Assembly: GCA_039621445.1 (NCBI GenBank)
Contig: CP154954.1
Coordinates: 11,960,716-12,024,715 of the forward strand
DNA from: Euglena gracilis
Lineage: Eukaryota
DNA length: 64,000 bases
Reading direction: 5' to 3'
Shown: positions 31,318 to 52,600 of the stretch, in pieces
Layout of the letters: each line of letters begins with the position of its first letter
Position numbering within the stretch: the stretch's first letter is position 1
The notes under the pieces: generated by a model
Told to the model about the DNA's origin: nothing
The model's input: only the letters and a program-made list of their open reading frames with translations
The model's database searches: none
Program-made: the position numbers and the translations under genes

Positions 31318-33040
31318 CACATGTCGCATACCCCTGCACTCTCTCACAGATGCCGCCACGTCGCCACCCCAACCTTACCACCCACACCAACCTCGACCAG
31401 TCCCCTTCACCATCCCGACAATACTACCCCCACCCCTACGTGCCCTTGAGGCCCAACTTCCTTCCCCCCTATGCCTCCGAATTTCAACACCAACGCAAAC
31501 GAGGCCACCCCCACCACCATACCGCCACCCACCGCCATACCAACCCCCACGACAACCCTCACCTCAACCCCCTCACGAGCCCCCACAGCCACCCCCACAG
31601 CGGAGCCCCAGCCCGAACCCCCCACAGCCGGAGCCACCGAGCCCTCCGCGGCGGCGGAGACGCTCAGTTTGCTCCAGCCTGGCCAGCTTCCGGGGGGTAT
31701 CGCTGCCCCTGGACAGCCCCCCAGCAACACCCCCCCACAGTCCGCGACCCCCTCACCGCAGCCCAAGCCCCCCACCGACGACAACCTCCCCAAGAAACAG
31801 TGGTGGGTAGCGGAGCTGCTGGACCTGTGACGGGTGAACCCCCCTCGCAAGGCGCGGGTGCCCCCACGGGCCCCGCATGTATACTCAGAGCCTTGCGGTG
31901 GGACCCGAAAACACTTGACAAACCTGAAAGAGACTTCACGACCGAACTTCCGAGCTGATTTACGACCCTGACCGAATTCTCAAGCTGCACACCCAAGTCC
32001 GACATGAACCTGTACACCACTGACAAAACCTGCCTGACTGAAAACGACAAAACGGGCTTGGGCAGCCCCCTGGCCAGCCCACCTGAACCTGAACCGCTGG
32101 CCAGCTCAACTCGAACCAGCCCAACGGACCTGAACAAGACCCGACCCGACCCGAATTCACTGACCTCAAGTACCTCTCTTCTGCCAATCAATCCATTCTT
32201 CAACTCTTCATCGTTGTTGTTGTGGGTTGGGACCCCCCCCCCGTGGAGAACGAACCTTCCCCCCTGGACTTGGCCAGCCTACCTGTAAAAAAAACAACAA
32301 AACACAGCCCCCAACCCCAACCGTAGCAGCCAGCCAAATCTGGGCAAACGGTGGAAGGGGAACCTGACTTTGACCAAAAAACACGGCCTGGCCGACCCCG
32401 GGCCACCGGCCTGGGGGGGGGGGGGCGAGGGCCCTCCACAGCACCTGACCTCGCACAAACCAGCCTACGCCCCAGAAAAAAAAAACAAAAATACAAAAAA
32501 AACATTGACCCAGCCTGAATTTTAACCGAAACCCAGCCTGCACCTGACTTTTATTAAAATTCGTCCCCGGCCGGAGCCTGACCGCTTGGCCTGGGGGGGG
32601 GGGGCTGGAAGGCCCCAGCTGGACCCACCCCCCACCGAACGGACACCAACCCCAGACAGCGAATTGGCTAACCGAACAGAAAACGGCTGTCTAGGACCCT
32701 GACCGTGACAAAACAACTCACCTGACCTGGGAATAAGAATTTCCTGAAAATTTTAACCGTAGCTGGCGCTTGGTTCACAACGACGCCTGCCCCCCCCCCA
32801 ACGACAAACAGCCCTAGGCGGGCTGGGGGGGGGACAACACACCAGACCCCGCACAGACCCAACTGTCAAAGGAGAAAATTTCACTCAGCCCCCCGGCCAT
32901 AAAACGAACCTGAACGGCACAGCCCCCTGAGGGGGGGGGACCCTGAACCACAACGGTCCCCTCGCTCGCCCCCTCCTCACAACGAGTGCATTCCGCACCC
33001 CTTCCCTTTGGAGTCGTGAAGAGTTGTAAACAACTCCTTC

Positions 33041-33521: not shown

Positions 33522-35230
33522 TCTAGCAAGTCTAGCTAGCCCCTGGGCTCTCCAACAAATTTCATTATTCCAGACCCTAGACCCCTCACCCCTCGAACCT
33601 GACCGGTGCGGTTGGCTCGCAACCCGACAGGGAGGCCCCGCGGGACCCCCCCCCCAGTGCCTGGGCTCCGGGGGGTTCAGGTTCCAACCAAAAGGGCCAG
33701 CCTTCGCCTGGCCAGGGGCGGGGGGTCTTACATGGGGTGGGTCTGATATGGGGGGGGGGGCATGGTAGTGGAAAATGAGAGAGGCCATTCACCCCCAACC
33801 ATCAAAACGGTGAAGTTCACTGGTGAACTCGGCGGTGAAGTTCACGGCCGAAAGCACCGCCCCCCCCCCCCGGTGAACTTCACCAGTGAAGTTCACTGAC
33901 AGGGTCCACAACCCCCCCACGTACTGCCTAACCTCCTTTGTGAAGGGTGTGGCGTATTGTGACATCCACTGCCACGGGGCCACCGCTGTCCAAGCGGTTT
34001 GAAGAGTTCAGGGGAGTAAGGCTATGTACAGAGGCAACAGTCTGTGCACGCTGGTGGAGGGAGGGAAGGTAAAGGGGACGAGCTTAGAGAATAGTAGAAG
34101 GCGCGAGGTGAGGCCGCTGTTGATCAGCTTCCGGTGTTCTTCGGCCACGCGAGTCAGAGTGGTTGGGCAGGCAATGGGGAGGTGGCAGGGCTCGGTGCCG
34201 TTTAAGGTGGGTGTTGATGACGGGGCCGGTGATTCCGTTTTCCGCTGTCTTTCGCGCCCTGCGGCTCCTCGGGGGCGTCGTTGAGGCTCCGACGTGCTGC
34301 GTTGGTGGCGTGGCGGGTGTGGAGTCCTGCTTGCTTTGGCTGCTCTGTAGAGGTCAACTGCGGTAGTTGTTTGTCGAAGTCCACTTCAGGAGACGGTATG
34401 TGAGCATCTTCCCAACGAATTGTTTCCTCCAGCGCACCTCAGTTTGTTGTACTGACAGGCCTTATGGGTAGCATTGCGACGTAATTTACAAATGTAAGTT
34501 TCGCGTGTAACTTACAGGTAACTTACAGCGTAATTTATTTTTAAATTACGGTCGTGTAATTTTTGTTTTGCGTCCTTCTGGAATTTGGGATTGCCTATGT
34601 TTTTTCTTTGTTCAAAAACGTGGTCGTTTAATGGAGACAAGGCACAGGGGGGGGAGGGGGGGTCCGAGGGGGGGGTTGGAAGCTGTATAGGGGGGGGGGT
34701 CCCCAGAAAATCACAACTGTACTGCCTACCCCCGAGACAGTTGCAACATTTTTTGTCCAATTGAGGTTGGCAATGATGGATTTTGCGAAATTCAGATGCA
34801 TTTTGCGAAATATTTGTCTCTTGTAAAAAGAATGGTAGCCAGTGTTTTCACTTTAAACACTCAGCAGAAAGGCAGGAAGCAGCTTCAATCACTCCCCCTT
34901 GGCACACCATGCGTAATTGAGCTAAGGTTGACGTTTTTTTGTTTTTCAACAAAGAACAAAAAATATTTTTTTTTCAAAAAAAACACAAAAAAACTGTCCT
35001 TTTTCCTTGCGAAATGGCCATTTTTTGAGGAAAAAGGTCATTTTTTTGGTCATTAAAAGTGAGGTTTTTTTTAGTTTTTCCAGACACTTGATCCAGCACC
35101 CTTTACGACTACGAAGCTGTAGAGATGAAAAAAGGACCTTTTTTCTAAAAAAAACAAGTTTCAAAAAAATTACCCCAAACCCTCCATGAGGTTTTTTTTT
35201 AAGGGGGTACTACTATTTTTCTTAGGGGTA

Positions 35231-35520
35231 CATGGGTCATGATGGCCATCATGGGGCCTGATGGCCATCATGGGTCATGATGGCCATCATGGGGCCTGAT
35301 GGCCATCATGGGTCGTGATGGCCATCATGGGTCATGATGGGCATCATGGGTCGTGATGGCCATCATTGGCCATGATTGGCATCATGGGTCATGATGGGCA
35401 TCATTGGTCATGATGGGCGTCATGGGGCATGATGGGCATCATTGGTCATGATGGCCATCATGGGTCATGATGGCCATCATGGGTCATGATGGGCATCATG
35501 GGTCATGCTGGCCATCATGG
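35231..35520. repeat. 19-bp minisatellite (about 15 units), consensus GATGGCCATCATGGGTCAT
   Basis: GATGGCCATC recurs at 35241, 35260, 35279 and onward; adjacent units form the palindrome CATGATGGCCATCATG. Confidence 0.9.
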
Positions 35521-36494
35521 CCCCGAGGGGGGGAGGGGGGGTTCGGGGGGGGTTTCCCCCACGGGTAAGCTTCGCTCTTACCCATAAAGGGATAAGGGCT
35601 CAGAGACCCCCCCATATAAGACCCCCCCTCGAAGGTTAGGCAGGGGTGGGGGGGGGGGTTGGGGGCTTCGCCCCTAAAGGAATTTCAATGGAGAAACTTC
35701 ACCGGTGAAGTTCACCGGTGAAGTTCACCGCCATGTATTTCCAATGAAGACGGGGGGGTGGGGGGGGTCCCGCCCGAAAAACCCAAAGTTCACTGCCTGA
35801 TCTCCCTCGGGAGCCAAAATCCCAGGGGGGGTCTTATATGGGGGGGCATGGTAATTACGGTTGTCAGCCCCGTTGCACAACTTTTTTGTTTTCCCCGTGA
35901 CCCGAGAATCGATCCTTCGCCATTCTTTTTTTAAAGCATTTTTTTAAAAAAACAATGAACTTTCATGCATCCGCCCAATGCACCTTCATACCCAAAAATG
36001 GCCAAAAAACTTTTCCTTTGAAAGAAGTGCCAAAAACTGGTGCATTTCCCCACCCAAAACGGAATTTTCTCAAAAATGGCCCAAAAAAACTTCATCCCAA
36101 AGACGTGTTGGTCAAGAAAATCCTAACAAAATTCCCTTTCAAAAAAATGACCAATTTTATCACGATGCAACGTCATGGATGTTGCCTCCCGGCCACCTGC
36201 AAAGTGGCATACTTCCCCCGTGACCCCCCCCCCGCCCCGTGACCCCCCCCATGACCCCCCCCCCGCGACCCGCACCACCCCCTTAAAAAAAGCATGTTTT
36301 TTTGTTTCAAAAACAACAACCCGTTTTTTAATATTTTTTTTTCATCTGTCTCGGGGGGGGTTGGAAGTGGGGGGGGAGGGGGGGGTCCCGGGAGGGGGGG
36401 GGTTGGAACTGTACAGGGGGGGAGGGGGGGTCCCAAGGTTTGACCAACTGTACTGCCTTGTCCCCAAATGTAAAAGCAGCTCTTAGAATCACAA

Positions 36495-36563
36495 GGCGAG
36501 TGGCATAGTGGTACAGCGTTTGTCTGTCAACCGTGTGGTCGTGGGTTCGATTCCCACCTCGTC
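36495..36563 (+). pseudogene. tRNA-like relic or tRNA-derived SINE head (GTC at the anticodon position)
   Basis: A-box TGGCATAGTGG, T-arm GTGGG-TTCGATT-CCCAC, acceptor GGCGAG/CTCGTC, T6 terminator; anticodon stem does not pair. Confidence 0.6.
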
Positions 36564-36948
36564 TTTTTTGGTTCCACTTTTGTGGTAAAAATCGCCCCCC
36601 CTATTTTGGTTTTGTTTTTTAACCACCCACCCCTATTTCATTTTTTTTCACCCCCCCCCCCACTGGCTGTAGGGCTGTTTCGATTAATCGATAATCGATT
36701 AACCGTTCGTCATCGCCGATTAATCGAATCGTTCGACCCATGGCGATTAATCGTTCATTGTGGACATAAACCACAATAGGCACAATATTTGTTGAAATCA
36801 ACAAAAATTAGTGGGGTAGTCAATCAGATAGCACACTGCTGCTGGTACACCATGAAAACGGTTGTTAAAAGTGGCCAATGAGTCACCGAACGTGCCCGTG
36901 AAACATCGCGCGATTCTGATTAAGATACAGCAGTTCCTAATAAGCTTC

Positions 36949-37265
36949 GATTTGCGAAGCAGGCTATGAATGGGTAACAACAACCATCACCTTACGCCCA
37001 ACAAAGTTTCAGCTGAAGGTGGTAAGTACAACGGAAGGGTGTATGTACAAACCTACACTACTCTACGATGGAACATCAGCAAAGCAGCGGAGGAGTTAGT
37101 TTGATTGTAGAGGCTTACTTCCAATAAAGGAATCTGTGAAGAAATATTTACAGATTCAGTTTTGAATTCTTGTCGCGTAACGGTTCGCAAATCTCGAGAT
37201 TGGTGAATCTCTGGATTTGCGAAGCAGGCTATGAATGGGTAACAACAACCATCACCTTACGCCCA
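36949..37265 (-). repeat. 3' split-direct-repeat block B1-A2-spacer-B2
   Basis: Exact repeats read directly from the sequence; A2 and B1 abut with a one-base gap. Confidence 0.9.
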
Positions 37266-37284
37266 TCTGTCTGTATAAGGGCGA

Positions 37285-38620
37285 TCAGAGTGATAAAATT
37301 CCAATATACTTCACAACAGAGAAGGAGGTGCATAAATGATCCCACAATTCAGAAGCAGTTGTGACTGCTTGATGATGATCTCTGGAGAAAGGAATTCTAG
37401 AAATGGGGTCAGCGGGTTGGTTTTGGGAAGCACACCAAAGGATGTGCGTATTTAATTTTGACCAAAGCAGGCGATTTAATATTCGGCGTGTAATTGTACA
37501 CAGCACCGGACTACTTAATTGTGGGCGGAGATTGGTGGCTATGTAGCAAACACCCATATTATCTCCTATATAAGTCAAGCTGTTCCAATGAAGCCGTACA
37601 GCCAGATTGGTGGCGTAGTCCAATGCAAAGTATTCAGCTTGTTGTTGTGAGGAAACATAGGGAGGACACAGAGATAATTTTGCACCGAAGGATGGAGAGA
37701 AAAGTCCAATATAGTAAGAATCTGCAAACCTTGCAGCATCTCCACAAATGACGTGTGTAAAGAAAGGTGGTGGAATGGGATCAGTTGCTTCCCAAGGGGA
37801 ACAAGAAAGTATAGTGGTTCAAAAAGTGAATACACCATTTTGTTGGAAGGTTGTGGAAGGTAACGTCTCCCATGCCAACGGTGAAGATACCAGGAGCGGA
37901 GAATAGATGTGATACCAGGAAGGGGTCGGACAGACCATAATAAGTGTCCCAAAATGACATCAATACGCTTGTCAAACACTGGTATTAAGGATGCCAAAAC
38001 GGATCGTGAAATTGTACAAAGAAGGGTATGGTGTGTATTGGTAATTTGTCGTTTGTTGAGCAAAAGCAATTTTCCAAGCCACTTGATCTGTTGGCTGGGG
38101 TTGAGACATGATTTTTTTGAAATAATCAGCGAATTTTGTTGTAGCACAGAAACGAAAAATTGAGTTATGTCGTTGCATAGTGAAAAAGTGGTTGCAAGTA
38201 GAAAGACATCGTCGTAATAAACAAAATACCAAAATTCGGAACGATACAATAAAGAAAAATGTGAATTTTCCAAAGAGGAAGAGAGTAAAAATTCTAAGGA
38301 CTTTTGTGCAATAATTGGAGAAAGATTCCAACCAAAGGGGGGTGATGTGGAGGAAAAATTGTCGATTCTAAAAATATGTTGAGCTTCTTGTGGTAATTGT
38401 AAAGACCAAAAAAAATTTGTAAGGTCGAGGGTAGTAGCAAATAAAGTTGAAGGAGGAAATTTTCGAATGATTTCTGCAATGTCTGAAAGGGAAGGTAAAT
38501 GAAAAGAAGGTAACGGGGTCGGTGTCAATTGATTCAGACCTCGTAAGTCTGCAATAAAAGCTGCTTTTTCGGAAGATTTGGGTCTCAAAAAAACTGATAG
38601 GTTAGAAGGTGAGTGTTTTG
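37285..38620 (-). pseudogene. Reverse transcriptase plus RNase H of the YR element (frameshift near 37810)
   Basis: FIADLRGLN, LDLTNFFWS, PFGWNLSP, VYYDDVFL, IKWLG; RNase H CGDAA...QQQAE...IGDN...NQPADPISR. Confidence 0.9.
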
Positions 38621-39955
38621 AGTGTTTTGAGTAGAGTGTTTTGGGGATGGGATCAAAAATTTGTCTCTCACAAGAGAGGATAACAAAATTTTAGTCAGAG
38701 ATTTTGTTTTTCTTGGCTCAAAAGGGGGTGGAGGGATGTATGTTCGAAGGTGGTTAAGGAGACTGTTGGGTACATATGTGTGCCAAATATGAGGTGGTAT
38801 CGAAAAATGTCCACGTAATCCCAAACCTCTTGCGGCTATGTCTGGTGTGACAGAAGAGGGAGTTGTTTCATGAAGGTAATATTTGATAAGGAGCAAAATC
38901 AGCCATGAAATGGTGTGAAGTTGTAACAGGAGCTTCAGAAAAGCATGAAGGGTGATTTGTATGTTCAAAGCATTTCGTCTTTGTAGAAAAATGATGACGA
39001 GTTGGCGTAATCTCAAGAAAATTTGTTGTCGGGTTAAGGGAAAAGGGAGCGCAGAACGAGAAATGTTTCCGGCTATACCCCAAAGAGTATTACGGAGCTT
39101 GTGGTTCAAGATGGGTGTGGTTAATGGATGTTTAGGTTCGTGATCGTTTGTTTTTGGAGCATTTGGGTTCGAAGGTTTGGGGTGAATGCCAGAAACATTC
39201 AGGGCCTCCGGGCAAAAAAGTTGCTTCGAATGGGGGTAGGACGGAGAAAGGAGCCCATGGCAAGGTTTTGGGCCAGAGGAGGGGTGTATCGTCATATCCA
39301 ATGTATTTTTTGGCGGTGTCTGGACTGGCCCAACGACACCAATGCTGGATGACATTGATGTCGATGCCGAATTGAAACATTCCACGTGCCGTTGCTCGAC
39401 TGATAGAGTGAAATGAACAATGTTCGGCGTCTGTGTGGGTGAAATATTCACGGGTAAACTGTTGTATTTGATTGATTGAAAAGAAGGGGGTAGTGGGATC
39501 GGTGAAAGGATGGGAACGCTTCCAAAAGGCGATCCATGCCATAATGAATAGTGGGGGACTTCTGAAGATGCGTTGTTGATTGTGTGGTGGTTGCTTTTCT
39601 GGCATGAACCAGATTCCACCACCTGCAGGGGTGGACAGATTGTCACATGGTCTAATTGAGGCCACTTCACCAATACGTAGTCCGAGGGATAATGCCACAA
39701 GGAATACGCACAAGATGAAATGGGTTTGCTTAAGGTTACAAACTTGTGCAATATGTGTGAAAGATGTGGGGGGGAACCACGTTTTGGTGGGAATGAGGCG
39801 CATTCTGTCTGCCGCTCTGGAAAATCTCCAGTATGTTTGTGGAAATAGGGGTGTTGTCCAGCCCAATGTGTGTAATGCTTGGAATGCTGAAAGAGTGTTT
39901 CGAATTGTGGAGGCGGCACACTGTTTTTGTATAAATGTTGATATGTATTGTTGGA

Positions 39956-42624
39956 CAGCAGTGCGGTCGTCAAAAAGGAGGACATTTGTCAGGGGTTTTT
40001 TACAGACATTAATCCTTGTCAGTCAGAAATCCAGGGAGTTTTTGACGGGGTTTTTGTCATCGGGCTTGCGTCGAGGCCATTAGAGCACTTTTCCCGCTCG
40101 TGGGTCCGTCGTTCCGCCGAAATTTATTCCCCCCCTTTTCACCCGCCATTTTGATGAAGTGCCGTGGTGGTTCTCAGTGCCTGGTGCTGGGCATATCGGA
40201 CTGTCCCCAAATGAACGAGCCCCGGTGAAGGACGTTTTTGGGGGGGGGGGGTAACAAGGAGTCCTGCTGCGTGCCTTTTTCTTTTTAAAAAAAACACTGC
40301 AGAGCACACACAAAAACGGGCAACTGATCAACGAATTTTTTTTGTGTTAAAAGAGAGGGGTAGGGGGGGGGCGTGTTGAGAAAACGGGCGGTGCCACCAC
40401 CTACCAGTTTGGCTTTGAGAAATGGAAGAGAACACTGCCACGGACCCCGAAAAAGACCCAGGTGGTGGCACCCCACGTCCCTGGTGATGGCAGTGGTCCA
40501 TTTAAATGGCACTGTTCCAGCGCACGTAGCATTCCCTATGGAAATGCTGCTCTGTAAGGGAATGTCGATCAGCTTGTAGATGGCCACACGCTGACCACAG
40601 CCGCTCCACGGCACCCGTGGAACTGGGGAGGGACGTCAGCCTGCCCCCCAAGGGGGCCAGCACGTTATCCGCAAACAAACTCCCTGACAGGCTTAATCTT
40701 TCACCAACCCCAGGGCCAGGGGGGGTGTGCATACAAAAAGGAAACCGAACAAACAGCCGCTGCATCACATTTTAAAAACGGGCTTTTCAAAAAAACCGTG
40801 TCCTGAATTTTTTTTTTGAAAAACCGACGGGGAGAACGGGCAATTTCAAAAAACTAACCCCCCCCCCTGGTGTGCAAAAAAAACTTGAAATTTAAGCCTG
40901 TTCCAAAAAGCGTACGGGGGAGTGCATGGTTTAGCGAAGGTCTTGGCAGCCTCCCAGCAACCCGTCATCTCCACCCACGCCAATAGGTCTGCAACTGTGG
41001 GCACCGTGGCGTCCGGAAGGAGGGCGGGACGCCTTCAGAGTCCCTCAGGGACGTACAATTTTTTTACCAACCCCCCCCCCGGGGGTCACTTCCACTTTTC
41101 CCAAGACGAGTCATTTTTCCGGTGGGGGGGGGGGGAGGGGGGAAGGGGGCCACAGTGGAAATCAAAGGACCAGAGAGCTGAAAGAAAGCCAAAACCATTT
41201 CCCGGGTATACTCAGGGGGGGGGGACAAAGCCATTCGTTCCATCAACACTGCCCGGGGCGCCCTGTTCTGGCAGTGTTCTGCAGGAAGTCGAACACCTCG
41301 CGCAAGCGCTTGCGTGTCCCCCACAGGCCTGTTGATCACAGCTTCTCTGAGGTACTGGCCGTCCGCAACTCTTTCTTCGGTGTACACCACTCGCGGGTAG
41401 CCCCGGCGGAAGAATTCCTCCACCTGCTCGGCCTTCGCGATAGTGCTTTCCCATAGTGAAAGGACGTCTTTGGCCAGCAACTGTCCTGTGCAGTCAGAAA
41501 AAAACCAACACTTAAGCTAAAACTTGAAAGTCACCTGTGTGGGCATGGCAGTTGAGAGGTATGACAGCGTCTGTGTCGAAGAGGTCCCGGAGGGCGGCTT
41601 GGCAGTTCGCCGCGTTGTCCGCCTGCAGAGCGATTACGTTACACCCCAGGCCTTTCAGTTCGGACATTACGTCCCGTATACTGTCCTGCAGTTCGGCACT
41701 GGTATGTCTTTGCTTGAACCTGTGAAGATGCACATTTTGAAAGATGATCCTTTGTGAAAAAGAAACACACCGCTTGATCTGGAACAGAATGGGCTGTTGC
41801 TTGCAACTCAGGGCGGGGCCACGCAAGTGCATGTGACATTATGAAAATTATGTAATGCAATGGCGTGAATGTGCACCATGAACTCAATGGTATGAAAATG
41901 AGCACCATCTTCCCACATATCAAGGGCCACCGCAACGTATGGTAACTTCACCAGTATTTGTTCCACTCTCTGAGAACACGAAAACAAACAGGGATAGGGG
42001 ACTGGGATACACCTTCTTGATGTCCATGTACACATCTAGTTGTCTCTTCTGCATTGTCTCCCTGCACGGCAGCCGGAAGTCTGCCCGCAAAACCGCCAGG
42101 AATTCCTTCATTTCCGGGCAGCTGACCACCTCCAGGGGTACACCTCTCTTCATCTGCAGCAGGCTCAGCCTTTCTTCTGCCAGCCTTTGTTGCGCTGCCG
42201 TGAAAGGCCTATCGCCGAACGTGCAAATCAGGGCTTGCTTCTTCTTCGCCGGCTGTGGCGTCAGGTTCTCCTCGCCAGTGGCTTCGACGGCCCGCCGTGC
42301 CCTGACCATGTGGCTGTGACGGACGTAATGCAACGCACATCGCGTGGCATGGTGGGCAGATTCCCACATACAGTGTTTGCATCTCACCTTGATACATCTT
42401 CCAGTTCGATCCCATTCAATTTCTGTAAACTGGTCCCACTCAGCACGCTCAGGACGTCCAGACATGTAACAACCGTGCTACCCTGTGAGGAGCGGACATT
42501 AATTCAAGCCGGGCGATTCCTTATGAGAAACGCGAATACTTGACACCTGACAAATGTCTAAATGTCATATTTATGTCAAATGTCTGTCAGAAACCCTTGT
42601 CATTTGCCAAAATTTGCACTGCTG
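39956..42624 (-). mobile_element. hAT DNA transposon, internally truncated
   Basis: TIR CAGCAGTGC / GCACTGCTG; 8-bp TSD TTGTTGGA at 39948-39955 and 42625-42632; transposase exons inside. Confidence 0.9.
41250..42465 (-). pseudogene. hAT transposase 5' part (BED zinc finger, first catalytic Asp, DN..N and CxxH motifs) with three short GT-AG introns
   Basis: W..F...CKHC...H, VALDMWED, ADNAANCQAA, CHAHT; introns of about 43-52 nt (for example 41970-42012) join the frames; C-terminal half absent. Confidence 0.8.
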
Positions 42625-42888
42625 TTGTTGGATAAGAACAGTGATTGGTATCTTTCTGTCACAAGTGAGTCGGAATTTTTCAAACTGAAGAATTTTTTGT
42701 TTATAAGTTCTGATGGTTGTGGGTGCCCAAGAGTACAAGAGTGCTTGTTGTATGTTTTGGGGACGTTGATGGTGTTCGAAAGCGGAAAATTTGGTGAGCA
42801 TAGATTCCCACTCAAGGACACTGGGGTGGATGTCTGAAATTTGTGTTGTTGAGGGGTAAGCTGATATAGCTTCCCCTTTTGGCAGGAG

Positions 42889-43761
42889 TCATTTGGAATT
42901 CTGATTTTCACATTCCCAATGCCAGTGGTATCGGGAACAACGAAAACATTTTTTGGGCGGTGGAAATTTTACATTCCACAAGGAACCGTCCCGGGAAATA
43001 TAAAATTTGTCTTCCCCAAGAATAGCAAAATTTTGTAACCCATGAGGGGTGTGTTCCTCATATACTTTCCCACCTCGTCGAATTAATTCATCCACCCCAA
43101 AATTCACTGGTGGGTGAATCCGTTGTACTGAAGAGGACGAGGATTGTAAGAAAGAATTTGAGGGAGATTGTGACGAAGGAAATGATGAGGAGACATGAGA
43201 AGAAGGAGAAAATGAATGAAAAGGTGATGAGGAACGTAAAAATTCGGACGAAAAAGAATTTGTTGTTTTGAAGGACGTTTTGTAACAGAAAAAAGTGTGC
43301 ACCATGAGTTTCCACAATTCTTGAAGTGGGTCACCATCTTCTTGTATGTCCTCAAAACTGGATTGAAAAATCTTGGACATTTCACGCATCCAAACGGGAA
43401 GGTGTTCAAATTTTTGAAAGGTTAACACAGATTCAAGTGAAAAATTTTGTGATAAATATTCTTCAGAAGAAGTGTTGATGGTCATCTTTTGAACTTTAAG
43501 TTCAGCAATTTCCTTTTGAAGCATGGAAATTTGTTCCAACAATGCGGAATTTTGACTTGCGGAAACAGCGGAATTAGGTGACCAAAGAAAATGGTCATCC
43601 TGAATTTGTAAAATTACATCTGCATACACTTCGTATGCGACAAATAAAGGGAGTGCATCGTCAACCGATAATTGAAAAGAGGTGCCAACAAGGAGTGTCT
43701 GCCACCAGGAAGGTGGCCAGGTTTGAGAGCGAAATTTTAGTTCAATTTTTTTGCGTGACAT
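42889..43761 (-). CDS. Gag-like protein of the YR element with a C-terminal Cys/His knuckle
   Basis: ATG 43761 MSRKKIEL; short coiled-coil, Ser-rich linker, PPPKKCFRCSRYHWHWEC; lies directly upstream of the YR. Confidence 0.7.
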   Translation of the reverse strand: MSRKKIELKFRSQTWPPSWWQTLLVGTSFQLSVDDALPLFVAYEVYADVILQIQDDHFLWSPNSAVSASQNSALLEQISMLQKEIAELKVQKMTINTSSEEYLSQNFSLESVLTFQKFEHLPVWMREMSKIFQSSFEDIQEDGDPLQELWKLMVHTFFCYKTSFKTTNSFSSEFLRSSSPFHSFSPSSHVSSSFPSSQSPSNSFLQSSSSSVQRIHPPVNFGVDELIRRGGKVYEEHTPHGLQNFAILGEDKFYISRDGSLWNVKFPPPKKCFRCSRYHWHWECENQNSK

Positions 43762-43834
43762 TTCTATGGAAGAAATGGACTGCAAAAATTCGTTTGCAAA
43801 GGAGGTGCAAAATTCTTGAAACGGAACAAATTGC

Positions 43835-44445
43835 GGGTCCCGGATTTTGTTCAATGTCACCTGAGAGGAGCAATAGTTTTCGTATATTCCAAAAGGTATG
43901 TTTGGTGTTGATATGGAAAACATAAATGGGCCAGGGGGGGTGGGCAGTATACGACGGTTGGAAAAAATAAATATTGGTTCATTCGGGAGGAGTAAATGCT
44001 GAGTGGAAATTTTAAATAAAAATGCAAGGGGATATGGATATATGACCGGAAAGAGCAAGACGATATGTACGGGTTGATTTTTCAGTCGATCCAGCACACG
44101 ATTCAACAAATGAAATGGGGGGTTTGCCCAGATTAATTTTTCTGAAGACCAATTATGCAAAAAAGCGTCATCGAAAATCGACCAAAATTTTGGTACGCGA
44201 CAATTTTCAGGTGAAGCAAAAGCATCAATCGAGGGTAAAGGTAAGTCAAAAAACGCAAAAATTCTGTAAAAATACTTTGGAATCAAAGCATAATCTTGTT
44301 GGGCCTGCTGAAAATAAAGATTCCTTGAAGGGCCAGGATTCATTTGAATGTCTCCACAAAGCAGCAGAAAAAGGAAGTTTAGAAACGTAAGAATTTTTAA
44401 AAAAAGGGGTAGCAGAAAAAAATGTTCGGAATAAATGATTTCCAA
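43835..44445 (-). CDS. Dam-like N6-adenine MTase flanked by two 2A-like peptides (one-base frameshift in the G7 run 43934-43940)
   Basis: LLLCGDIQMNPGP (44367-44329), DYAL...IDAFAS...DAFLHNW...WANPPF (44124-44113), then LLLLSGDIEQNPGP (43876-43835). Confidence 0.82.
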
Positions 44446-46931
44446 AAGAATGTTTTGATTTTAAGGGTTAAAAGAATAGTGTACCAAAAGAAAAATCGGT
44501 ATACCATCAAAAAAAACTGCAAAGTTTCCAAACTGCTGAAAAGTTTTTTGACTGCTGTTGTTAAAAACAAACGTGAAATTTTTTTAACTTTCAAAAGGAG
44601 AAATAACAAAAAACACAAAAACAGGGGTGCTCCAGACAGCAAATGTTGTGCAGAAGGGGGGTAAGCCATTTGTGTGGGTTTTGAGGGGAAATGTTTGTAA
44701 TCTTGCAATTTTTCAATGAAGTCAGGGAAAAGCCCATACACAGGTGGTAAAAAAATAATGGAATCATCAATCCACTCAAAAATAGAATGTCTCAACACAA
44801 CATGTTGAAGTTTGTCCATCCCAGCATTTTGATGTAGATAAAATTCAAGTTTTTTGGCAAATTTTAAATAATTTTGGTAAAGTTGTTGTCTTTCACTTGG
44901 TGAGATTGTTACAGAAAACAAACTTGCTATGTCTCCAACATTGCTTTCAGGTGCCACCATTGGTGTAGAAACTGGGGGGGCAGGGGGGGCGGCCGCCCCC
45001 CCCCCGAGATTTTTTCGCCCCCCCCCCCCGAGAATTTTTTTGACTCAAAAATTTTTCGCCCCCCCCGAAAAAAAGTTACCCTCAAAAAAATTTTTGTAGG
45101 TTGTGAAAAATTTCTTTCAAGATTAAGAAACCAACTTTTCATTGAACTTTCAGGTGTTTTTGCTATTGGACATCGCTACCGTCTCGCCGCCCTTCGGGCG
45201 GCCAAACAAGCCCAAAACTCATGGGCTTGGAGGGGAAATGAGTCTTCGTATTTTCAATTTGGGGTTGTTGTTTGTGAATATCTCCACCGCCGTCTCGCCG
45301 TCCTTTGGTGGAAACAGGAAACACATGTATCTTGACTAGGCTTCTAGCATTCAATATTCTAAAAGAGCAAACCAGTTCTTTTGTTGTTCCAAATCTGTGT
45401 TTTCTGGTGCGAAAAATCATGCTTTCAACCCAAAAAAAAACAAAAAAATGAATGCTGCAGAGATAAAAAATGAACTTTTTTCTAAAAAAAACATTGCAAA
45501 AAAAAATTCCCCAAACCCTCCATGACGTTTTTTTTTGTTTTTTTTAAAAAAACTTATTATTTTTAAAAAAACATGTTTTTTTTGTTTCAAAAAAAACAAG
45601 CCGTCAACCTTGCTTGAAACTGGCAAAAAAAAACGTCCCATGTTAAAGAAAGAGTCCCCAATGAACTTAACGTGACCCCCCCCTATATGGCACCCCCCTG
45701 GGAGCGTTTTTGACCCCCCTGGCGACAATTAGGGGGGGGTGACAATTAGGGGGGGGGGGTTACTCAATTTACCCTACATGTCCATGGGTCCACGAGTAAC
45801 CCCCCCCCCTAATTGTCGCCCCCCCCCAAGGGGGGGGCGACTATTAGGGGGGGGTGACAAATAGGGGGGGGGTCACGTTAGTCGGCCTACGGCCTCCTCC
45901 GGGGGGGGGGGGGGCTGCCGCCCCCCGGACCGTTCTTTGTCACGTTCAATGCCTTCTTTCAAAAAAAGTGCTACCGTCTCGCCGCCCTTCGGGCGGCAAA
46001 AAGAAAACAACACATACAAACAACATTGGTAATAGGGGTTTTTTCAGTCATGGACCCCGGGGGGGGGAGGGGTGGTAGGGTGGGTGGGTCCGGCCGAGCC
46101 CCCCCCCCCTCCCGGGGGGGGGGTCACCCCAGGGGGGAGTGGGATATGCTTTTTGGTGCCGAAAATTTTTGAAAAAGTGCTATTTTTGGAATTTTTCTGT
46201 TTATGGCCGGCGCTAACTTCGCTTCTGGCCCAGGTTCTCGCCCCCCCCGAGAAAAAATTGTTTCTACACCGATGGGTGCCACAGAGCAATCAACAGCTGT
46301 ATTGACTTCTGAAAGGTCCACAGTATCAAGCATGGGAGGAGGTAGCGGAATAAAAAAATTGTCCTGATAAGCAGACTGATAAAATGCAGGGTAATTTTGT
46401 TGAACAGAAGGTAAAAAAACTGATACTTGTTGAATCCAGGAAAGGAGTCGTTGTTTTTGGTGATCCACAATTTCATCAGGAGATGAGTTCAAAATTTCAA
46501 TCATGTCAGAGAAATGTTGAGAATGTTTCTGTTGCAGAGAAACATTTTCCCAAATTTGAGAGGGACTGTCAGAAAGATGAATTGAGGAGTCTGATTTGTT
46601 CTCTGCAGAATTGAAAGAATCAGGACAATTTTGTACAAGCTTGTTCAAAAGACTCAAAGGCACAGGAACACAATCTGGGGGAAGGGATTGTGCAGTAACA
46701 TTCTGTTGTGCACTGATGTGTGGGTTGACAAAAAGAGGAATTAGCAGCATTCAAAGGAAAGCTGTTTGGCTGTTGTGGAACACAGGTTCCTGTATAAGTT
46801 GATAATTGGTTTGGGAGAGAAGCTCCAAAAGGAGCAGGTAATACTCCAAAAGGAGTTTGAATAACTCCACAGGGAGTCTGCACAGGTTGGTTTTGGTTTG
46901 TCAACATTGGGATTCCAGAATAAAGATTCAA
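44397..46931 (-). pseudogene. Unknown ORF of the YR element (Pro/Gln-rich start, hydrophobic C-terminus), split by the 44958-46274 insertion
   Basis: Removing the insert joins DCSVAP|ESNVGD in frame (ORFs 46124-46750 and 44397-44960); no recognisable domain. Confidence 0.55.
44958..46274. mobile_element. Non-autonomous hAT-type element (1.3 kb)
   Basis: TIR CATTGGTGTAGAAAC / GTTTCTACACCGATG (1 mismatch); 8-bp TSD GGTGCCAC at 44950-44957 and 46275-46282. Confidence 0.9.
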
Positions 46932-47026
46932 AGGAAAATGCGAGTAGGGGGCTGGGATCAGGGGAACAGATTGTTGTACAACTGCAGGGGTGACAGGAGG
47001 GGTAGGGAGGGACCTTAGGCGTGATA

Positions 47027-47368
47027 CTAGGTTGTGATGAGCTCTTGGCCAGCACTGTCTTTTCTTGCTTTCTTTCCAGTCCCAGTTTCACTATAATCTC
47101 TCTTCTTCTTCTTCTGGTCTTCCTTGAACGGTTGTCCATCGGGGTGTGCTACCCTGAGAGCAGCAGGGTGCTGGCCTTCTGCACGGGCATCACCAACTTC
47201 AAAACTGACTTCCTGTCCAGGATGTAGAACCGGGACTCCAACTCCCAGTGTCAGCAGCTGACTCACGTGTATATAATACGTGGTAGCTTCACCAGAGTCG
47301 GTGTCAGATGATTGAAGAAAACCAAAACCCCTGTGGGGAAACCATGTTGCCACGGTGCCAGTCGGCAT
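47027..47368 (-). CDS. Cold-shock domain protein with a basic tail; first ORF of the YR element
   Basis: MPTGTVATWFPHRGFGFL (RNP1), YIHVSQL (RNP2), LHPGQEVSFEV...AALRV; KKKKR tail; starts about 100 bp inside repeat A1. Confidence 0.85.
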   Translation of the reverse strand: MPTGTVATWFPHRGFGFLQSSDTDSGEATTYYIHVSQLLTLGVGVPVLHPGQEVSFEVGDARAEGQHPAALRVAHPDGQPFKEDQKKKKRDYSETGTGKKARKDSAGQELITT

Positions 47369-47467
47369 CTTGAAAAACCAAAGGTGATCCAAATTAACTT
47401 TCAGACTTGACAGAGGTGCAAGTTCCTGTTGGTCGGTATTCTGCAGCCCCGACCGGCTAAGACTTCA

Positions 47468-47569
47468 AGGCTTACTTCCAATAAAGGAATCTGTGAAGAA
47501 ATATTTACAGATTCAGTTTTGAATTCTTGTCGCGTAACGGTTCGCAAATCTCGAGATTGGTGAATCTCT
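47468..47569 (-). repeat. 5' repeat A1 of the YR element
   Basis: Identical by eye to 37111-37212. Confidence 0.92.
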
Positions 47570-47898
47570 CGTTCTGCCATGTTCTGCCAAAAAAACGTTC
47601 TGCCATGTTGAAAGAGAATGGATACAAAAATTCGTCGACGGGCACAAAAAGAAATGGTCTGTGTTCGATATTACAATTTCTCAGGAAGGATTCATAATCA
47701 AAAAAATCCAAAAATCGGAAGGGACCAATTAATCGTTAGTCGTCCGAGACACCCCGATTAATCGCGATTAATCGTTCGCCGGCCCAAAACGATTAATTGG
47801 CACAACCCTACTGGCTGGAGTTGATGGCTTCCACAAAATCCAAATTCCATAAAATATGGCTGGCACCCTTTAGTGATGATTCTGAGAATGTATGCATC

Positions 47899-47971
47899 GC
47901 TCACATAGCTCAGTTGGTACAGTGCCTGCTTCATGACAGGGAGGTCGCGGGTTCGAACCCTGCTGTGTGCA
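47899..47971 (+). pseudogene. tRNA-like relic (CAT at the anticodon position)
   Basis: TAGCTCAGTTGGTA A-box, GCGGG-TTCGAAC-CCTGC T-arm, acceptor 6/7 paired; D and anticodon stems mispaired. Confidence 0.6.
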
Positions 47972-48041
47972 CCTTTTCCTCATATTTTTGCCTTAATGTA
48001 TAATATTAAAAGAATTTTCTCCTACAAATATGGTTAAAAAG

Positions 48042-48116
48042 TGCACACACGGTGGGGTTCGAACCCACGACCGCTCGCTTACTCAACGAGCGCAGTACCA
48101 ACTGAGCTACATGTAC
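48042..48116 (-). pseudogene. tRNA-like relic (AGT/Thr at the anticodon position)
   Basis: GTACATG-TAGCTCAGTTGGTA..., anticodon stem CTCGT/GCGAG, GTGGG-TTCGAAC-CCCAC, T-run downstream; U33 replaced and D-stem broken. Confidence 0.6.
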
Positions 48117-49629
48117 GATGCCTATCAAAAGCGTCTGAATAGATAAAGGACCTTTGGACGACAGAATTTGTCCCCCCCCAAACAAAGTGGCCAGTGCCTT
48201 CTCCCTTGTCACCCCCCAAAGTGTCCGTGTCCCCCCCCCCCCCGAGGGTGGACATTTCAGGGTCCCACGGCACCCTGGCCACTTTGGGGGGGGTGAGGGT
48301 ATATGGTTTTTGAGGTTGGGGGAGGGGGCCAAGGTGAATTGTTCAAACAAAATAAATTTCATAAATTTCATAAATTTCATAAATTTCAGTAAGTTACCAT
48401 AATGTAATTTATAAATCTTAAATTACGCGAAATTCGCAATGCTACCTATGGGCGCTTTGGAAAAACGCAGGGAGGTGGCCTACGCCTGGAGGAAAGTCCT
48501 ACCGAGACTCGAATGTACCACCCCCCCCCCCCCATATTGTCCCCCCCCCATATTGTCCCTCGGCCCGGCCGACGAGGGGTTTTTTTGGCTCGGCCAGAAA
48601 TTTCCTTTGGTACCCCCATATTGTCCCCCCCCCCATATTGTCATGTCGGGCCTCCTGGGGAGAGGTCGGTGGGACAATATGGGGGGGGGGGGTAGGACTC
48701 ACGTGCTCAAGGTGTTTCCTAACTTTCATGACCGAAAATGAAAGGAAAGGTTTCACGGATTTTATCTTTCTTTCAGAGCAGTTTTCACAAATTGAACAAC
48801 CCTGTCACGGGAAACTGTCGTGTTGGACAAGGTTCCCGAGTTGCGCTGTTCCAATTTGGAAAGCAAGTTAAATTTATGTACTGCAGAAACAATGCAAGCC
48901 GTTAACGTTACAAATGCATGTGTGACTAGTGTTGCTGCTGCACTCCCTCCACTTTGGTAGATCACCTCTGATCTTTCAAATTGTACAGGTAATTTGGCGG
49001 GACTTCAAACAGCATTTTGAACTTTTCTGTAGCCAGCAAGTGTTCCCTCCAACCGGGATGGTGTGTTTCTTTATCGGATCTGGCATTTCATTGTGAGACA
49101 AGTGGCAATTGCTTTTGAGAAAATTGCAGTTACGTTTTGAGACAATGGAAAGGATTTTGAGACGGGTGGCAAGTCATTTTGAGACTGATGGCAGACAGTG
49201 AGCAGTTATTTTTGCAACCTTCAAAAACGTTGTAAACTGACCTTGTTTAAAGTGTTTATAATTCCACACACAGACTTTTTAAGTTCAGTATGGCGGCCCC
49301 ACATCCTTTTTTGCACTTCCACTGCCGACACATTTGAGGTGCTACAATGGGAGCTGGTGCCTCAAGCGGGCCCGGTGTGCCTGCATGCCTGCCCCACCTC
49401 TAGCATACAACATTGAGCAGGCCATGGAAAACCATGAAAAAAGCGCCAAGCCAACCGAAGGAATCTCCCTTTTCCTGGTCAATGTCGTGGGATAAAAAAC
49501 CATTTTTTTTCCAAGCCTTTTTCCCTGAGCCAACACCATCTAACCCCCCCCCCAACTTACCCTCACCCCCCTCAAAGTGCCTCCACCCAAGGTGACCAAT
49601 TTTTTTTGGCAAATGTGGATTACCCTCAC

Positions 49630-52600
49630 CAGGGTGTGACGTAGAGCTCTTTGGGACACCACCCCAGCCCGGCCCGGCGCCCGGCGCGGCCCGGCGGCCT
49701 TGGCCCGGCGGCACGGCCCGGCGGCCCGGCGGCCCGGCCCGGCTGGCGGGTCGAAAACTGCTCATTTTCGGCTCAAAAACAGGTTTTACGGGTCCTGGAG
49801 GCCAAAAAACATTGTTCTGGGCAAAATTTTTTTTCGATTTTTTTCGACTTTTTTGGCCCGGTTTTGACCCAAAGTCAATGGGTTGGTGGCCCAAAACGGG
49901 GCACTGGAGGGTCGAAAAACGCTCATTTTTTTGGCTCGAAACCACTTTTTCAAGGTCCGGGAGGTCAAAAAACATGGTTTTGGGCGAAAAAAAAATTGAA
50001 TTTTTTGACTTTTTGACCCAAAAATGGCTAAGTCCACCGGCCAGGGGGGCGGGCCCCAGACAGGGGGGGCAGGGGGGGGGGTTCGGGTCGGAAAATTTTT
50101 TTTTGCCCAAAAACACTTTTTTTGATGTTCTAAAGTGAAAAAAAGTGTTTTTGAGCGAAATTTTTTTTCAAAATTTTGGGTCCCGACCTGCCACCCGGCC
50201 CCCCCCCGCCCAACCGCCCTTGAACCCCTGCAGGGGTCCCCTATTACCCAAAACTGGCCCAAAATCGCACAACCAGACCCCGGGAACCCCAAAAAACGGT
50301 CAACCCCCCCCCCCAAACCAATGATTGATCCCCTGGTTTGGGTCCCAACTCCCCGTCTAGCCCGAGATACGGCCAATTTACGGTTTCGGGCCCCGAAATG
50401 GCCAAAACTGGCAAAACGGGCCCAAAACCCCCAAAACGGCCGTATCTCGGGCTAGGCGAGGAGTTGGCCCAAACCGCGCATACCACAGGCTATTCACTTT
50501 GGGGGCCACGAAATCCAGTCACATCGATAATCCCGGGGTTTCCGGACCTGCCCAGGGGGGGGGGGGCGGGGGGTGGGGGGCCCGTCGCCGGGGTGGTAAG
50601 CTTCGCTCTTACTCTAAAGAGATAAGAGCTCAGCGACCAGGGTGTGACGTAGAGCTGAGCTCTTTGGGGGACCACTCCGGCCCGGCCCGCGAAAAACGCT
50701 CATTTTAGGCCCAAAAACATGTTTTCTGGGTCCGGGAGACCATAAAACATCGTTTTGGGCCAAAAAATTTTTCGCTTTTTTTCGACTTTTTTGACACGGT
50801 TTTGACCCAAAATCAATGGAGCTTTGGCAGGGGGGGGAGGGGGGGTCCCGAGGTCAGTTTTTTTTGCATTTTTTGGCACTTTTTGCTGTACTGTCTCAAC
50901 ACAGGGGGGGGGGTCCTGGGGTCCCAACTGTACTGCCAACCCCCCCCTCAAAAATTGGCCAAAAACCGGCGCCGAAGGCGCCGGAAAAATTTTTTAGGGC
51001 CTTTTTTTTTGGTCCAAAAAGGCCATTTTTGGTGTCAAAATTTTCATCTGTCTCGGACCGTGCACCAGGGGGGGGGTCCCAAAAATCCCAACTGTACAGG
51101 GGGGGGGAGGGGGGGGTCCCCAGAAAACCCCAACTGTACTGCCGTCGCCCCAATGGGTTGGCGAACCAAAAAGGGGCCCTGGTGGGTCAAAAAACGCTCA
51201 TTTTCAGCTCAAAAACACTTTTTCCGGGTCCGGGTGTCCAAAAAACATGGTTTTGGGCGAAAATTTTTTTCGATTTTTTTTTTCGACTTTTTGGCCCGAA
51301 AACGGCTAAGTCGGACAGTGGGAAAAGTGTACAAAACGGCCATTTGGACCGAAAAACGGCCATATCTCGGCCCAGGCGCGGAGTTGGCCCAAACTGCGAA
51401 CACCGGTGGATGGGGCGTCCCAAAGTTGTGGAATGAGGTACTCTTTACTTTTTCTCAACTCCCCAGCGTTTTCGAGATATTTTGAATTTTTCGATTTTTT
51501 GACCCCAAAATGACCCCCTGTTGCCGGTCCAACAAACTTTCTTTGAAAAAAAAACGGAAGACAACTTTTTTGCTCCGGCCATATCTCCGGCCTGGCGTGG
51601 AGTTGCGGGCAAAGTGAGGGCTCTGGACAACCTAGGGGGGTGTTTCCCCCGCGACCCCCCCGCGACCCCCCCCCCCCGCGACCCCCCCCCGCGACCCCAC
51701 CCTGAGCCCGATTCGGGTTTCCAAAAAGGACAAAAAAATTAATTGCATTAATTAATTAGGAATTGCATTAATTAGGAATTTGCCGCTGAATTAGGAATCA
51801 AAAACATGAAAAATTGGTCCCAAATTCCTAATTGTACCTATTTTCGGACCTAAATGGCTCGCAAATTCCTAATTGGGATCTAAATTTAGAGGATAGAATG
51901 ACGTCACACAAGTCACGCATGACCTGTCGCGAAACCCATTTCCCCCCCGCCCCCCCCCCCCCCCCCCCCCCCGACCCCAACACCCCTTAGGGACCCTCTC
52001 CTAACCTATAGGCTATTAACTTTTCGGGTCCGGAAATCAGGTCACATCGATAATCCGCGGGGGCCCGAGCCTACTCAGGGGGGGGGGCGGGGGGGTTAGG
52101 GGGGTTTGGGGGGGGGGGGGGGTAAGCTTCGCTCTTACTCTAAAGAGATAAGAGCTCAGCGACCCAGGGTGTGACGTAGAGCTGAGCTCTTTGGAAGACC
52201 ACCCCGGCTCGGCGACCCGGCCCAGCCCGGCCCGGCGGCCCGGCCGGCCGGCGGCCCGGCACGGCCCGGCCCGGCCGGCGGCCCGGCGCGGCCCGCCCGG
52301 GTTTGACCCAAAGTCAATGGGTTGGCGGCCCAAAACGGGGCGCTGGCGGGTCGAAAAACGTTCATTTTTGGCTCGAAAACACTTTTTTCGCGTCCGGGAG
52401 GTCAAAAAACATGGTTTTGGGCAAAATTTTTTTTGAATTTGTTTGACTTTTTGACCCAAAATTGGCCAAGTCCACCGGCCAGTGGGGCAGGTGGACCTGG
52501 GGGGGCCTGGGGGGGGGGGGTCCGGGTCGGAAAATTTTTTTTCGCTCAAAAACACTTTTTTTGATGTTCTGAAGTGAAAGAAAGTATTTTTGAGCGAAAA

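Follow-up and report, generated by a model that had tools for sequence, protein, structure and literature searches.

A decayed tyrosine-recombinase retrotransposon of Euglena gracilis with VIPER-like architecture and a predicted 2A polyprotein in its first open reading frame

Retrotransposons that carry a tyrosine recombinase (YR) are, to our knowledge, the least understood order of retroelements, and we know of VIPER-like elements so far only in kinetoplastids. Here we report on a YR retrotransposon on the minus strand of a 64,000-nt stretch of Euglena gracilis DNA (CP154954.1 of assembly GCA_039621445.1, forward-strand positions 11,960,716 to 12,024,715), which is called the window below and to which all coordinates refer. 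We consider it probable that this element is a decayed copy of a multi-variant Euglena YR family of VIPER-like architecture, whose first open reading frame (ORF1) is a predicted 2A polyprotein made up of a membrane protein with a cold-shock domain (CSD), a Dam-like methyltransferase (MTase) and a Gag-like protein. The term VIPER-like refers here to architecture and host phylum only, not to the phylogeny of the reverse transcriptase (RT) or the YR. An initial annotation made from the same sequence had described a YR retrotransposon with an unusual coding module upstream of gag; its observation holds, its interpretation was largely right, and what it proposed on lineage and novelty is supported in part.

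The 5' module and its occurrence in other copies

An intact ORF1 of this family is found in another assembly. In the homologous-protein search, the closest relative and sole match of the window's MTase-gag ORF is P0016 (93% identity), whose 90% cluster also holds P0018 and the EukProt record EP00667_Euglena_gracilis_P028634 (P0017). P0018 comes from a 3936-nt contig of the other assembly and has 1057 aa in one frame. Its N-terminal half consists of the initial Met and the CSD (residues 3-67), a K-rich tail, a P/Q-rich linker, a domain of ~250 aa called domain X here, and a hydrophobic region of ~100 aa. Its C-terminal half holds, within the same ORF, a first 2A motif (2A-1, GDIEMNPGP, 567-574), the Dam-like MTase (NPPF at 644), a second motif (2A-2, GDIEQNPGP, 732-739) and the Gag-like protein, which ends in CFRCSRYHWHWEC...NSK; the 575 aa ahead of 2A-1 form an unbroken frame. 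By tblastn P0018 falls colinearly on the window in five pieces, at 47368-47036, 47075-46710, 46714-46274, 44957-44352 and 44421-42892. Besides the two full 2A motifs that flank the MTase, the 64 kb contain no other in any of the six frames; NPGP by itself appears twice more, each time outside a D[VI]E context. In the window copy 2A-1 carries an E>Q change relative to P0018, and two compensating shifts put 2A-2 out of frame, while it is in frame in P0016, P0018 and P0019.

The window copy is dead, interrupted by two hAT-like inserts and by six or more frameshifts, of which those in ORF1 lie near 47050, 46712 and 44400. For comparison, contigs from two DNA runs (X3 and X5) and from two RNA or possible-RNA runs were examined over 36000-48500. 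Both X3 and X5 contain the joint 39947->42625, which omits 2677 nt, and the joint 44949->46275, which omits 1325 nt, with 8 letters fitting either side in each case. Taken together with the 8-bp target-site duplications (TSD) and the terminal inverted repeats (TIR), that of insert 2 reading CAT[T/C]GGTGTAGAAAC, these joints indicate that both inserts are hAT-like and private to the window copy. Insert 1 splits the YR ORF, whose part 42888-42625 resumes at 39947-39135, and the ORF 46750-46275 resumes at 44949-44400 when insert 2 is discounted. Single contigs of X5 cross both sites: record 17 (2682 nt) joins 38284-39947 to 42625-43647, and record 21 (1766 nt) joins 44416-44949 to 46275-47497, linking the module to the start of the 5' repeat A1. 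Inside insert 2, depth rises to extreme values in every run over a 37-nt stretch (46197-46233) that is bounded on either side by sharp loose ends; the bin depth is as high as 7.7e5 in X3, and that of raw RNA reads is 15-16. This stretch probably represents the central part of a short repeat of very high abundance.

Multiple variants of the family exist. P0016, P0018, P0019 and the window copy differ by substitutions, as many as 4-6 contigs of a single run diverge at individual sites, and the contigs carry 8 extra letters relative to the window within 46550-46946, with further small indels of 9 letters within 42676-43647 and 14 within 38284-39947. The 5' module and the RT/YR body are covered evenly, with depths of 147-225 in the X5 contig records and ~660-1360 in those of X3. 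The in-frame P0018, contig record 21, the even depth and the variants together indicate that the 5' cargo is a family trait and no one-off. The initial annotation had considered that other copies might lack 43800-47400; the segment is present in P0018 and in the DNA contigs. That the module came into this locus alone, through nested insertion, host-gene capture or an assembly chimera, might be thought of in view of the many inserts and frameshifts of the window copy and of the caution, given in the main text of a preprint of May 2026 (bioRxiv 10.64898/2026.05.21.726589), that in E. gracilis insertions may be nested and assemblies chimeric. We regard it as highly improbable, given the continuous CSD-to-gag ORF of P0018 in another assembly, the two independent DNA runs in which the module is joined both to A1 and to the MTase side, and the 2A-MTase-2A-gag arrangement common to relatives at 24-36% identity.

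These relatives come from a HMMER scan with P0016, which gave 526 matches at E<=1e-3, 13 of them, P0016 itself included, at E<=1e-30. A 2A motif is present in 10 of the 12 non-self matches at E<1e-30, the remaining two being C-terminal gag fragments, and a 2A-like motif in 61 of the 149 non-self matches listed. NPP[FWY] occurs in 107 of the matches listed, among which a 2A motif lies at most 130 aa upstream in 26, at most 150 aa downstream in 26, and on both sides in 12. Seven proteins (P0021, P0022, P0024, P0025, P0026, P0027 and P0029) have the layout 2A-MTase-2A-gag at 31-36% identity, and P0032 (804 aa), 24% identical in MTase-gag, is colinear with residues 33-334 of P0018, starting from inside the CSD (E 6e-4). 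Judged by their sequences, distant relatives (24-36% identity) thus retain the predicted 2A-MTase-2A-gag unit, and one of them retains the putative CSD N-terminus as well.

The same unit is found outside YR elements. It occurs in long ORFs with an RT and no YR (P0048 and P0070) and upstream of RVT_1 in P0067, P0093 and P0096; by their motifs we take these five to be LINE-like, that is, related to long interspersed nuclear elements (LINE). From its presence in other retroelement ORFs, 2A-MTase-2A appears to be a portable cassette. P0048, P0070, P0062 and P0039, all from other assemblies, are long ORFs in which three to five 2A motifs bound several small modules, the Dam MTase among them, before a C-terminus of RT type. 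Predicted multi-cassette 2A polyproteins thus seem to be common in this retroelement group. Classical layouts also occur, none with a 2A motif, namely RT-RNase H-Dam in P0108 and P0158, RT-Dam in P0141 (no RNase H match), gypsy in P0147 and copia in P0115.

Several observations weigh against the interpretation given above. The N-terminal cargo varies across the wider group, being G/K-rich with no CSD in P0026/P0170 and made up of a P-rich region and a hydrophobic segment in P0027. The CSD itself scores just under the Pfam cut-off of 27, with 26.3 bits in the window ORF and 21.8 in P0018, and the homologous-protein search gave no longer homologues of part of domain X. Raw RNA reads (5% of run X21) have depth zero over the MTase, gag, YR and RT and merely 2-6 over the CSD region. 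The structural model of the Gag-like protein has no match of any kind at E<=0.001 in Foldseek against PDB (best E 0.64), and the best hits of the VIA wide search (Z 6.4) are generic helical bundles, covering residues 117-193 only; neither search gave a capsid. The depths, insert 1 having one similar to that of the element, are no measure of copy number. The tree of MTase domains (70 rows, quick search only) separates P0018 from other gag-linked MTases; P0018 is a composition outlier of unstable position, so neither a donor nor a direction of transfer can be claimed. Finally, eukaryotic Dams expressed in dam-deficient E. coli gave no rise in N6-methyladenine (6mA), according to the main text of the preprint.

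Some of these points would fit the view that the CSD-X-hydrophobic protein is a captured host gene fragment hitch-hiking in the element, and that the functional cargo is 2A-MTase-2A-gag only. The segment ahead of the first 2A differs among related lineages, most RNA reads fall on the region of the CSD, and a short transcript form (P0017 and a contig of run X16) joins 46980 to 46689 and would encode a small CSD protein only. We nevertheless find this unlikely: the 575 aa ahead of 2A-1 are unbroken in P0018, the DNA depth of the N-terminal segment equals that of the rest of the element, and P0032 keeps a colinear N-terminus from inside the CSD at 24% identity in MTase-gag, which implies long retention.

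Gene order, split repeats and relation to known retroelements

The Pfam scan covered 13 minus-strand ORFs of the element and gave the 5'->3' order CSD > MTase > gag-like > YR > RT > RNase H, with no match to a DDE integrase (rve) or an endonuclease family. The gag-YR-RT/RNase H order proposed in the initial annotation is borne out by Pfam, frame analysis and tblastn alike, and so is its identification of a YR retrotransposon, by the RT/RNase H, the YR and the split repeats. It had also seen ~2.3 kb of extra coding sequence upstream of gag and inside A1, which is confirmed in place and corrected in size to ~2.2 kb without the 1325-nt insert. The genes form three ORFs: ORF1, ORF2 (YR) and ORF3 (RT/RNase H).

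Split direct repeats, likewise noted before, are confirmed in the arrangement A1...B1-A2-B2. In the repeat search A is 110 nt at 97% (47468-47577 = 37111-37220), of which 101 nt aligned in register are 100% identical (47568->47468 = 37211->37111); B has 52 nt, also 100% identical (37265->37214 = 37000->36949). On the minus strand A1 is followed after ~10 kb by B1 abutting A2, then by 110 unique nt (37001-37110) and B2. Over 34000-50000 the same search detected no terminal inverted repeats belonging to the element, and self-BLAST of 36801-47800 against the window gave no second copy of the element body. Empty-site-like joints in DNA contigs (36949->47602 and 36955->47624) bracket the element, which comes to ~6.65 kb after both nested inserts are subtracted. 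Its 5' end lies at 47577 or beyond, probably at ~47601 from the empty-site-like contigs, with an uncertainty of ~30 nt; the boundary first placed at 47569 was therefore too short. These contigs run from 36949 to 47602 with TCCA between, and from 36955 to about 47605. One empty-site-like variant has CGATTTGCCATG at the junction, with GATTTGC common to the outer end of B2, and GATTTGCGAA is present inside A too, in the opposite orientation; the junction motif CGATTTGCCATG/GATTTGCGAA is a possible recombination core for the YR.

The closest known layout is that of VIPER and TATE; for VIPER, a survey (Ribeiro et al. 2019, PMC6681497) tabulates repeat A1 at the 5' terminus, with B1, A2 and B2 together at the 3' terminus. 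The likeness covers the split repeats, the order Gag-like, YR, RT/RNase H in three ORFs, and a host in Euglenozoa; the knuckle-like motif here recalls the zinc-knuckle-type motif in the Gag of some VIPER-like members. There are differences too: ORF1 of VIPER is Gag-like only, with MTase, CSD and 2A not described in the available text of the survey, and its repeats in full copies are longer: in T. cruzi and C. fasciculata A has 136-414 bp and B 219-308 bp, against 101 and 52 nt here (those of Bodo saltans have 83 and 57 bp). In the Euglena element, unlike VIPER, A2 and B2 are 110 nt apart, and the host is a euglenid, not a kinetoplastid. The survey dealt with kinetoplastid genomes only (44 trypanosomatids and Bodo saltans) and reported few significant blastp matches outside Kinetoplastida; VIPER/TATE had been stated in the initial annotation to be known in related euglenozoans, of which the available text of PMC6681497 describes none.

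DIRS1- and PAT-like elements share with the Euglena element a YR, an RT/RNase H and a truncated Dam-like MTase with NPP[FWY], and a DIRS-type RT is the nearest among the RTs compared: in BLASTP the family RT matches P0141 at E 1e-10 and P0158 at E 1e-8 to 3e-6, with 22-27% identity, against E 1.6 for the gypsy RT of the window. However, their MTase lies in pol after RNase H, as the initial annotation had it and in agreement with P0108 and P0158, whereas here it lies in ORF1, before Gag and between two 2A motifs; the DIRS1/PAT order RT/RH-(MT)-YR is not found, the MTase being upstream of gag and the YR upstream of the RT; and split direct repeats stand in place of the inverted terminal repeats (ITR) and internal complementary region (ICR) of DIRS1-like elements.

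The preprint reports Dam domains in DIRS and long terminal repeat (LTR) elements across eukaryotes, nearly all eukaryotic Dam domains being monophyletic and DIRS-derived, and a mixed DAM-LTR/DIRS group in Euglena gracilis with domain exchange among retroelement classes. The Euglena DAM-DIRS, DAM-LTR and EpiLTR elements thus have the same host and the same retroelement-borne Dam family as the element described here. The new YR family with accessories proposed in the initial annotation is borne out as to its 5' cargo, but a Dam accessory is not new in itself. One may then ask whether the element is simply a rearranged DIRS1/PAT-type Dam-DIRS, whose ancestral MTase moved from pol into ORF1, and so belongs to a lineage already counted in the preprint. 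The DIRS origin of eukaryotic Dams and the mixed Euglena group would agree with this, as would the nearest RTs among those compared, which belong to RT(-RH)-MT proteins (P0141 and P0158), and a screen of E. gracilis for Dam plus YR domains would very likely catch this family. Yet the RT identity to these two proteins is merely 22-27%, the YR precedes the RT, the repeats are split and direct, the MTase is in ORF1, and the 2A-flanked MTase of P0048 and P0070, with an RT and no YR, fits a cassette transfer. Furthermore, the terms 2A, NPGP, skipping, self-cleavage, cold-shock or CSD, VIPER and gag are absent from the main text of the preprint, which likewise contains no placement of the MTase in ORF1, no 2A boundaries, no cold-shock domain, no hydrophobic protein and no YR-before-RT order. 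We therefore hold a rearranged Dam-DIRS to be possible but doubtful, and keep to the VIPER-like YR family with a predicted 2A polyprotein.

The LINE L1Tc of T. cruzi has a 2A that works (PMC5814959); it too is a euglenozoan retroelement, in which an in-frame 2A near the 5' end of the coding region splits the products. According to the available text on it, L1Tc differs in being a LINE with one 2A and with no YR, MTase or CSD; in the Euglena element two 2A motifs would release an internal enzyme from a Gag-containing polyprotein. In the literature searched we found no retroelement 2A beyond L1Tc, and no 2A, CSD or ORF1-located MTase in a YR retrotransposon.

Protein products, feature coordinates and genomic setting

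The ATG of the CSD at 47368 lies 100 nt downstream of the end of A1. The domain matches the PDB cold-shock proteins 5o6f (E 8.7e-4) and 9xw3 (E 1.3e-3), and its motifs RGFGFL and YYIHV are presumably RNP1 and RNP2. Residues 1-111 of P0018 map to the window CSD region at 100%, and the region after it is broken by frameshifts near 47036-47075 and ~46712, so that residues 99-220 fall on 47075-46710 in a second frame and 222-368 on 46714-46274 in the first. After removal of insert 2, 44353..44949 is in frame with 46750-46275, and residues 366-570 map to 44957-44352. The hydrophobic stretches are residues 467-497 and 539-569 (Kyte-Doolittle windows >1.6). Residues 215-480 gave no usable match against the Atlas, and a single-sequence AlphaFold2 (AF2) model of the whole P0018 was useless (pLDDT, the predicted local confidence, 37).

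Two records show a shorter form of this region. The EukProt fragment P0017 joins ...TPPVTPAV (end 46980) to NPFPQIVFLCL and a stop, encoded at 46689-46657, that is, with a 290-nt skip with the ends GT...AC. Record 8 of the possible-RNA contigs of X16 (624 nt, depth 24.8) loses its match at 46980 as P0017 does, and has 24 unmatched letters past 47491, where the acceptor-like TTCTTCACAG inside A1 ends in the element. This form could be a short mRNA, spliced and carrying a trans-spliced leader, from which the CSD protein is made on its own; alternatively, it could derive from a deletion.

The MTase matches its Pfam profile at positions 30-76 of 169 only, in keeping with the truncated form of eukaryotic Dam that the preprint describes. 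The MTase is 31% identical to the Dam region of an LTR element of the window. Two copies of the Ty3/gypsy chromovirus type lie there on the plus strand (1-~9900 and ~21000-31960); their ORFs 3638-5272 and 25545-27137, each with Dam (PF05869) as well as a C5 DNA_methylase (PF00145), are followed by RT/RNase H, integrase and chromodomain, a layout that matches the EpiLTR architecture of E. gracilis given in the main text of the preprint. Gypsy elements with a DNMT might point to a dinoflagellate host, a reading set aside in view of the E. gracilis name of the EukProt record. The Dam of these EpiLTR copies is without 2A, and its group in the MTase tree has 2A in 0 of 18 rows.

The Gag-like protein has 317 aa in the intact ORF1. 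Its knuckle spacing is C-x2-C-x3-H-x4-C (CFRCSRYHWHWEC), and the canonical CX2CX4HX4C is found in the relatives P0025 and P0026. The AF2 model from a 30-row alignment (pLDDT 85; predicted template-modelling score, pTM, 0.42) has an alpha/beta N-domain, a long helix and a helical bundle, followed by a disordered S-rich linker and a small beta domain ahead of the knuckle; its missing fold match is no evidence of a new fold. The label Gag, accordingly a putative one, is based on where the protein lies and on its knuckle-like motif. Translation of gag would stop at a UGA (42891-42889) with C as the next base, and the YR ORF continues in the same frame. P0016, P0018 and P0019 all end at the last residue of the window's gag, ...QNSK, and this common end in three other copies suggests a programmed UGA read-through.

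Visual inspection of the YR suggests GLRIGE, HSISR and KKY for its R, HxxR and Y boxes. Residues 1-94 of its main part match residues 74-167 of P0015 at E 8e-9, and the YR has no match to PDB sequences at E<=1. P0015 continues from this YR N-terminus into an RT, showing that the YR>RT order recurs. ORF3 overlaps the end of the YR ORF and has frameshifts near 38625 and 37815, the tblastn matches of P0004 and P0020 falling in three frames. The protein search with the RT ORF gave 15 relatives (P0001-P0015) at no more than 52% identity, and RT-RNase H relatives of 570-590 aa map colinearly onto the window. Any link between them and the MTase-gag relatives (P0021-P0032) is presumptive. No confirmed relative loci with an RT alignment were found in metagenome_contigs, genome_contigs or viral_contigs, nor with P0007 alone in metagenome_contigs. 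Among the Atlas clusters nearest to P0004, Euglenozoa is the commonest taxon, with the phylum known for 3 members only.

Table 1. Features of the YR element in the window, from its 5' end (strand - for the element,. for the inserts)
Feature	Coordinates	Strand	Evidence
Whole YR element including two nested inserts	36949..47601	-	Repeats and empty-site-like contig joints
Split direct repeat A1, 101 nt	47468..47568	-	In-register alignment, identical to A2
ORF1 start (ATG 47368) and CSD with RNP1-like RGFGFL	47168..47368	-	Pfam CSD (E 6.7e-6), PDB matches, P0018 mapping
K-rich tail, P/Q-rich linker, first half of domain X	46275..47167	-	tblastn of P0018
Insert 2, hAT-like miniature inverted-repeat transposable element (MITE)	44958..46274	.	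8-bp TSD GGTGCCAC (44950-44957, 46275-46282), TIR ~16 bp
Second half of domain X and hydrophobic region	44353..44949	-	Frame arithmetic, piecewise translation
2A-1, LLLCGDIQMNPGP	44329..44352	-	DIQMNPGP in window copy; DIEMNPGP in intact P0018
Dam-like N6-adenine MTase, ~165 aa, NPPF	43859..44328	-	PF05869, E 7.3e-7, 29.5 bits, above cut-off 28.1
2A-2, LLLSGDIEQNPGP (DIEQNPGP)	43835..43858	-	Out of frame in window copy
Gag-like protein: coiled coil, S-rich linker, C-x2-C-x3-H-x4-C knuckle	42889..43834	-	Frame analysis, AF2 model
ORF2 (YR), N-terminal part	42625..42888	-	Same frame as gag past UGA; frame arithmetic across insert 1
Insert 1, hAT-like	39956..42624	.	8-bp TSD TTGTTGGA (39948-39955, 42625-42632), TIR CAGCAGTGC
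ORF2 (YR), main part	39135..39947	-	Pfam Phage_integrase, E 3.8e-6, 27.2 bits (cut-off 27.1)
ORF3: RT with YYDD, then RNase H	37288..39094	-	Pfam RVT_1 (E 3.3e-10, 40.5 bits, cut-off 29.6) and RVT_3, RNase H-like (E 0.003, 17.9 bits, below cut-off 21.6); tblastn of P0004, P0020
Split direct repeat B1, 52 nt	37214..37265	-	Repeat search and in-register alignment
Split direct repeat A2, 101 nt	37111..37211	-	Repeat search and in-register alignment
Split direct repeat B2, 3' end	36949..37000	-	110 unique nt (37001-37110) away from A2

As to the setting, the only Rfam matches in the window are three tRNAs, at 36493-36566 (+), 47899-47973 (+) and 48043-48116 (-), assigned as Gln-CTG, one with unclear anticodon, and Thr-AGT; these genes flank the element at 300-450 nt. 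Flank words have depths of 1e4 to 3e5 in the DNA runs, indicating that the element sits within a very high-copy repeat. At 35231-35520 there is a tandem array of a 19-nt unit (CATGGGTCATGATGGCCAT, 15 copies, 88% matches), self-complementary over ~140 nt.

Proposed expression and its meaning

With such an ORF1, ribosomes would skip the peptide bond at each NPG|P (StopGo), and one mRNA with one initiation would yield equal amounts of three proteins, namely a nucleic-acid chaperone tethered to membranes (CSD and hydrophobic helices), a free MTase and Gag. The YR would be reached via read-through of the conserved in-frame UGA-C or by re-initiation, and the RT/RNase H would be translated from the overlapping frame. 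Reverse transcription would then rebuild full ends using the split repeats, and the YR would insert the DNA without target duplication. The MTase may deposit 6mA on the cDNA or on the integrated copy, which is what the main text of the preprint proposes for Dam-carrying retroelements; both the RNA-chaperone and the DNA-methylation functions are predictions from the domains encoded.

We also put forward, tentatively, that 2A-bounded cassettes are a plug-and-play accessory system in retroelements of euglenozoans and related protists, and that the CSD protein tethers RNA to membranes. If this is true, a 2A-flanked module needs no protease site, promoter or splice signal, and can move among YR, LINE-like and other ORFs and still yield a free protein, so that 2A cassettes would be a mechanism behind the "ongoing domain transfer" in Euglena. 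The membrane-tethered element RNA would in that case offer a platform for replication or assembly, to which the short spliced mRNA would add CSD protein.

The probable reading of the element as a decayed copy of a VIPER-like Euglena YR family has several consequences. It extends VIPER-like architecture to a euglenid, and it presents a YR element with what seems to be a 2A polyprotein in ORF1. The retroelement Dam MTase is predicted as a free product of ~19 kDa in an amount equal to Gag, which bears on the inactivity of heterologously expressed Dam domains excised from polyproteins and gives natural domain boundaries. The predicted CSD-plus-membrane protein would be a new kind of retroelement accessory, and the 2A-flanked cassette may provide a simple route for the exchange of epigenetic enzymes among retroelement classes.

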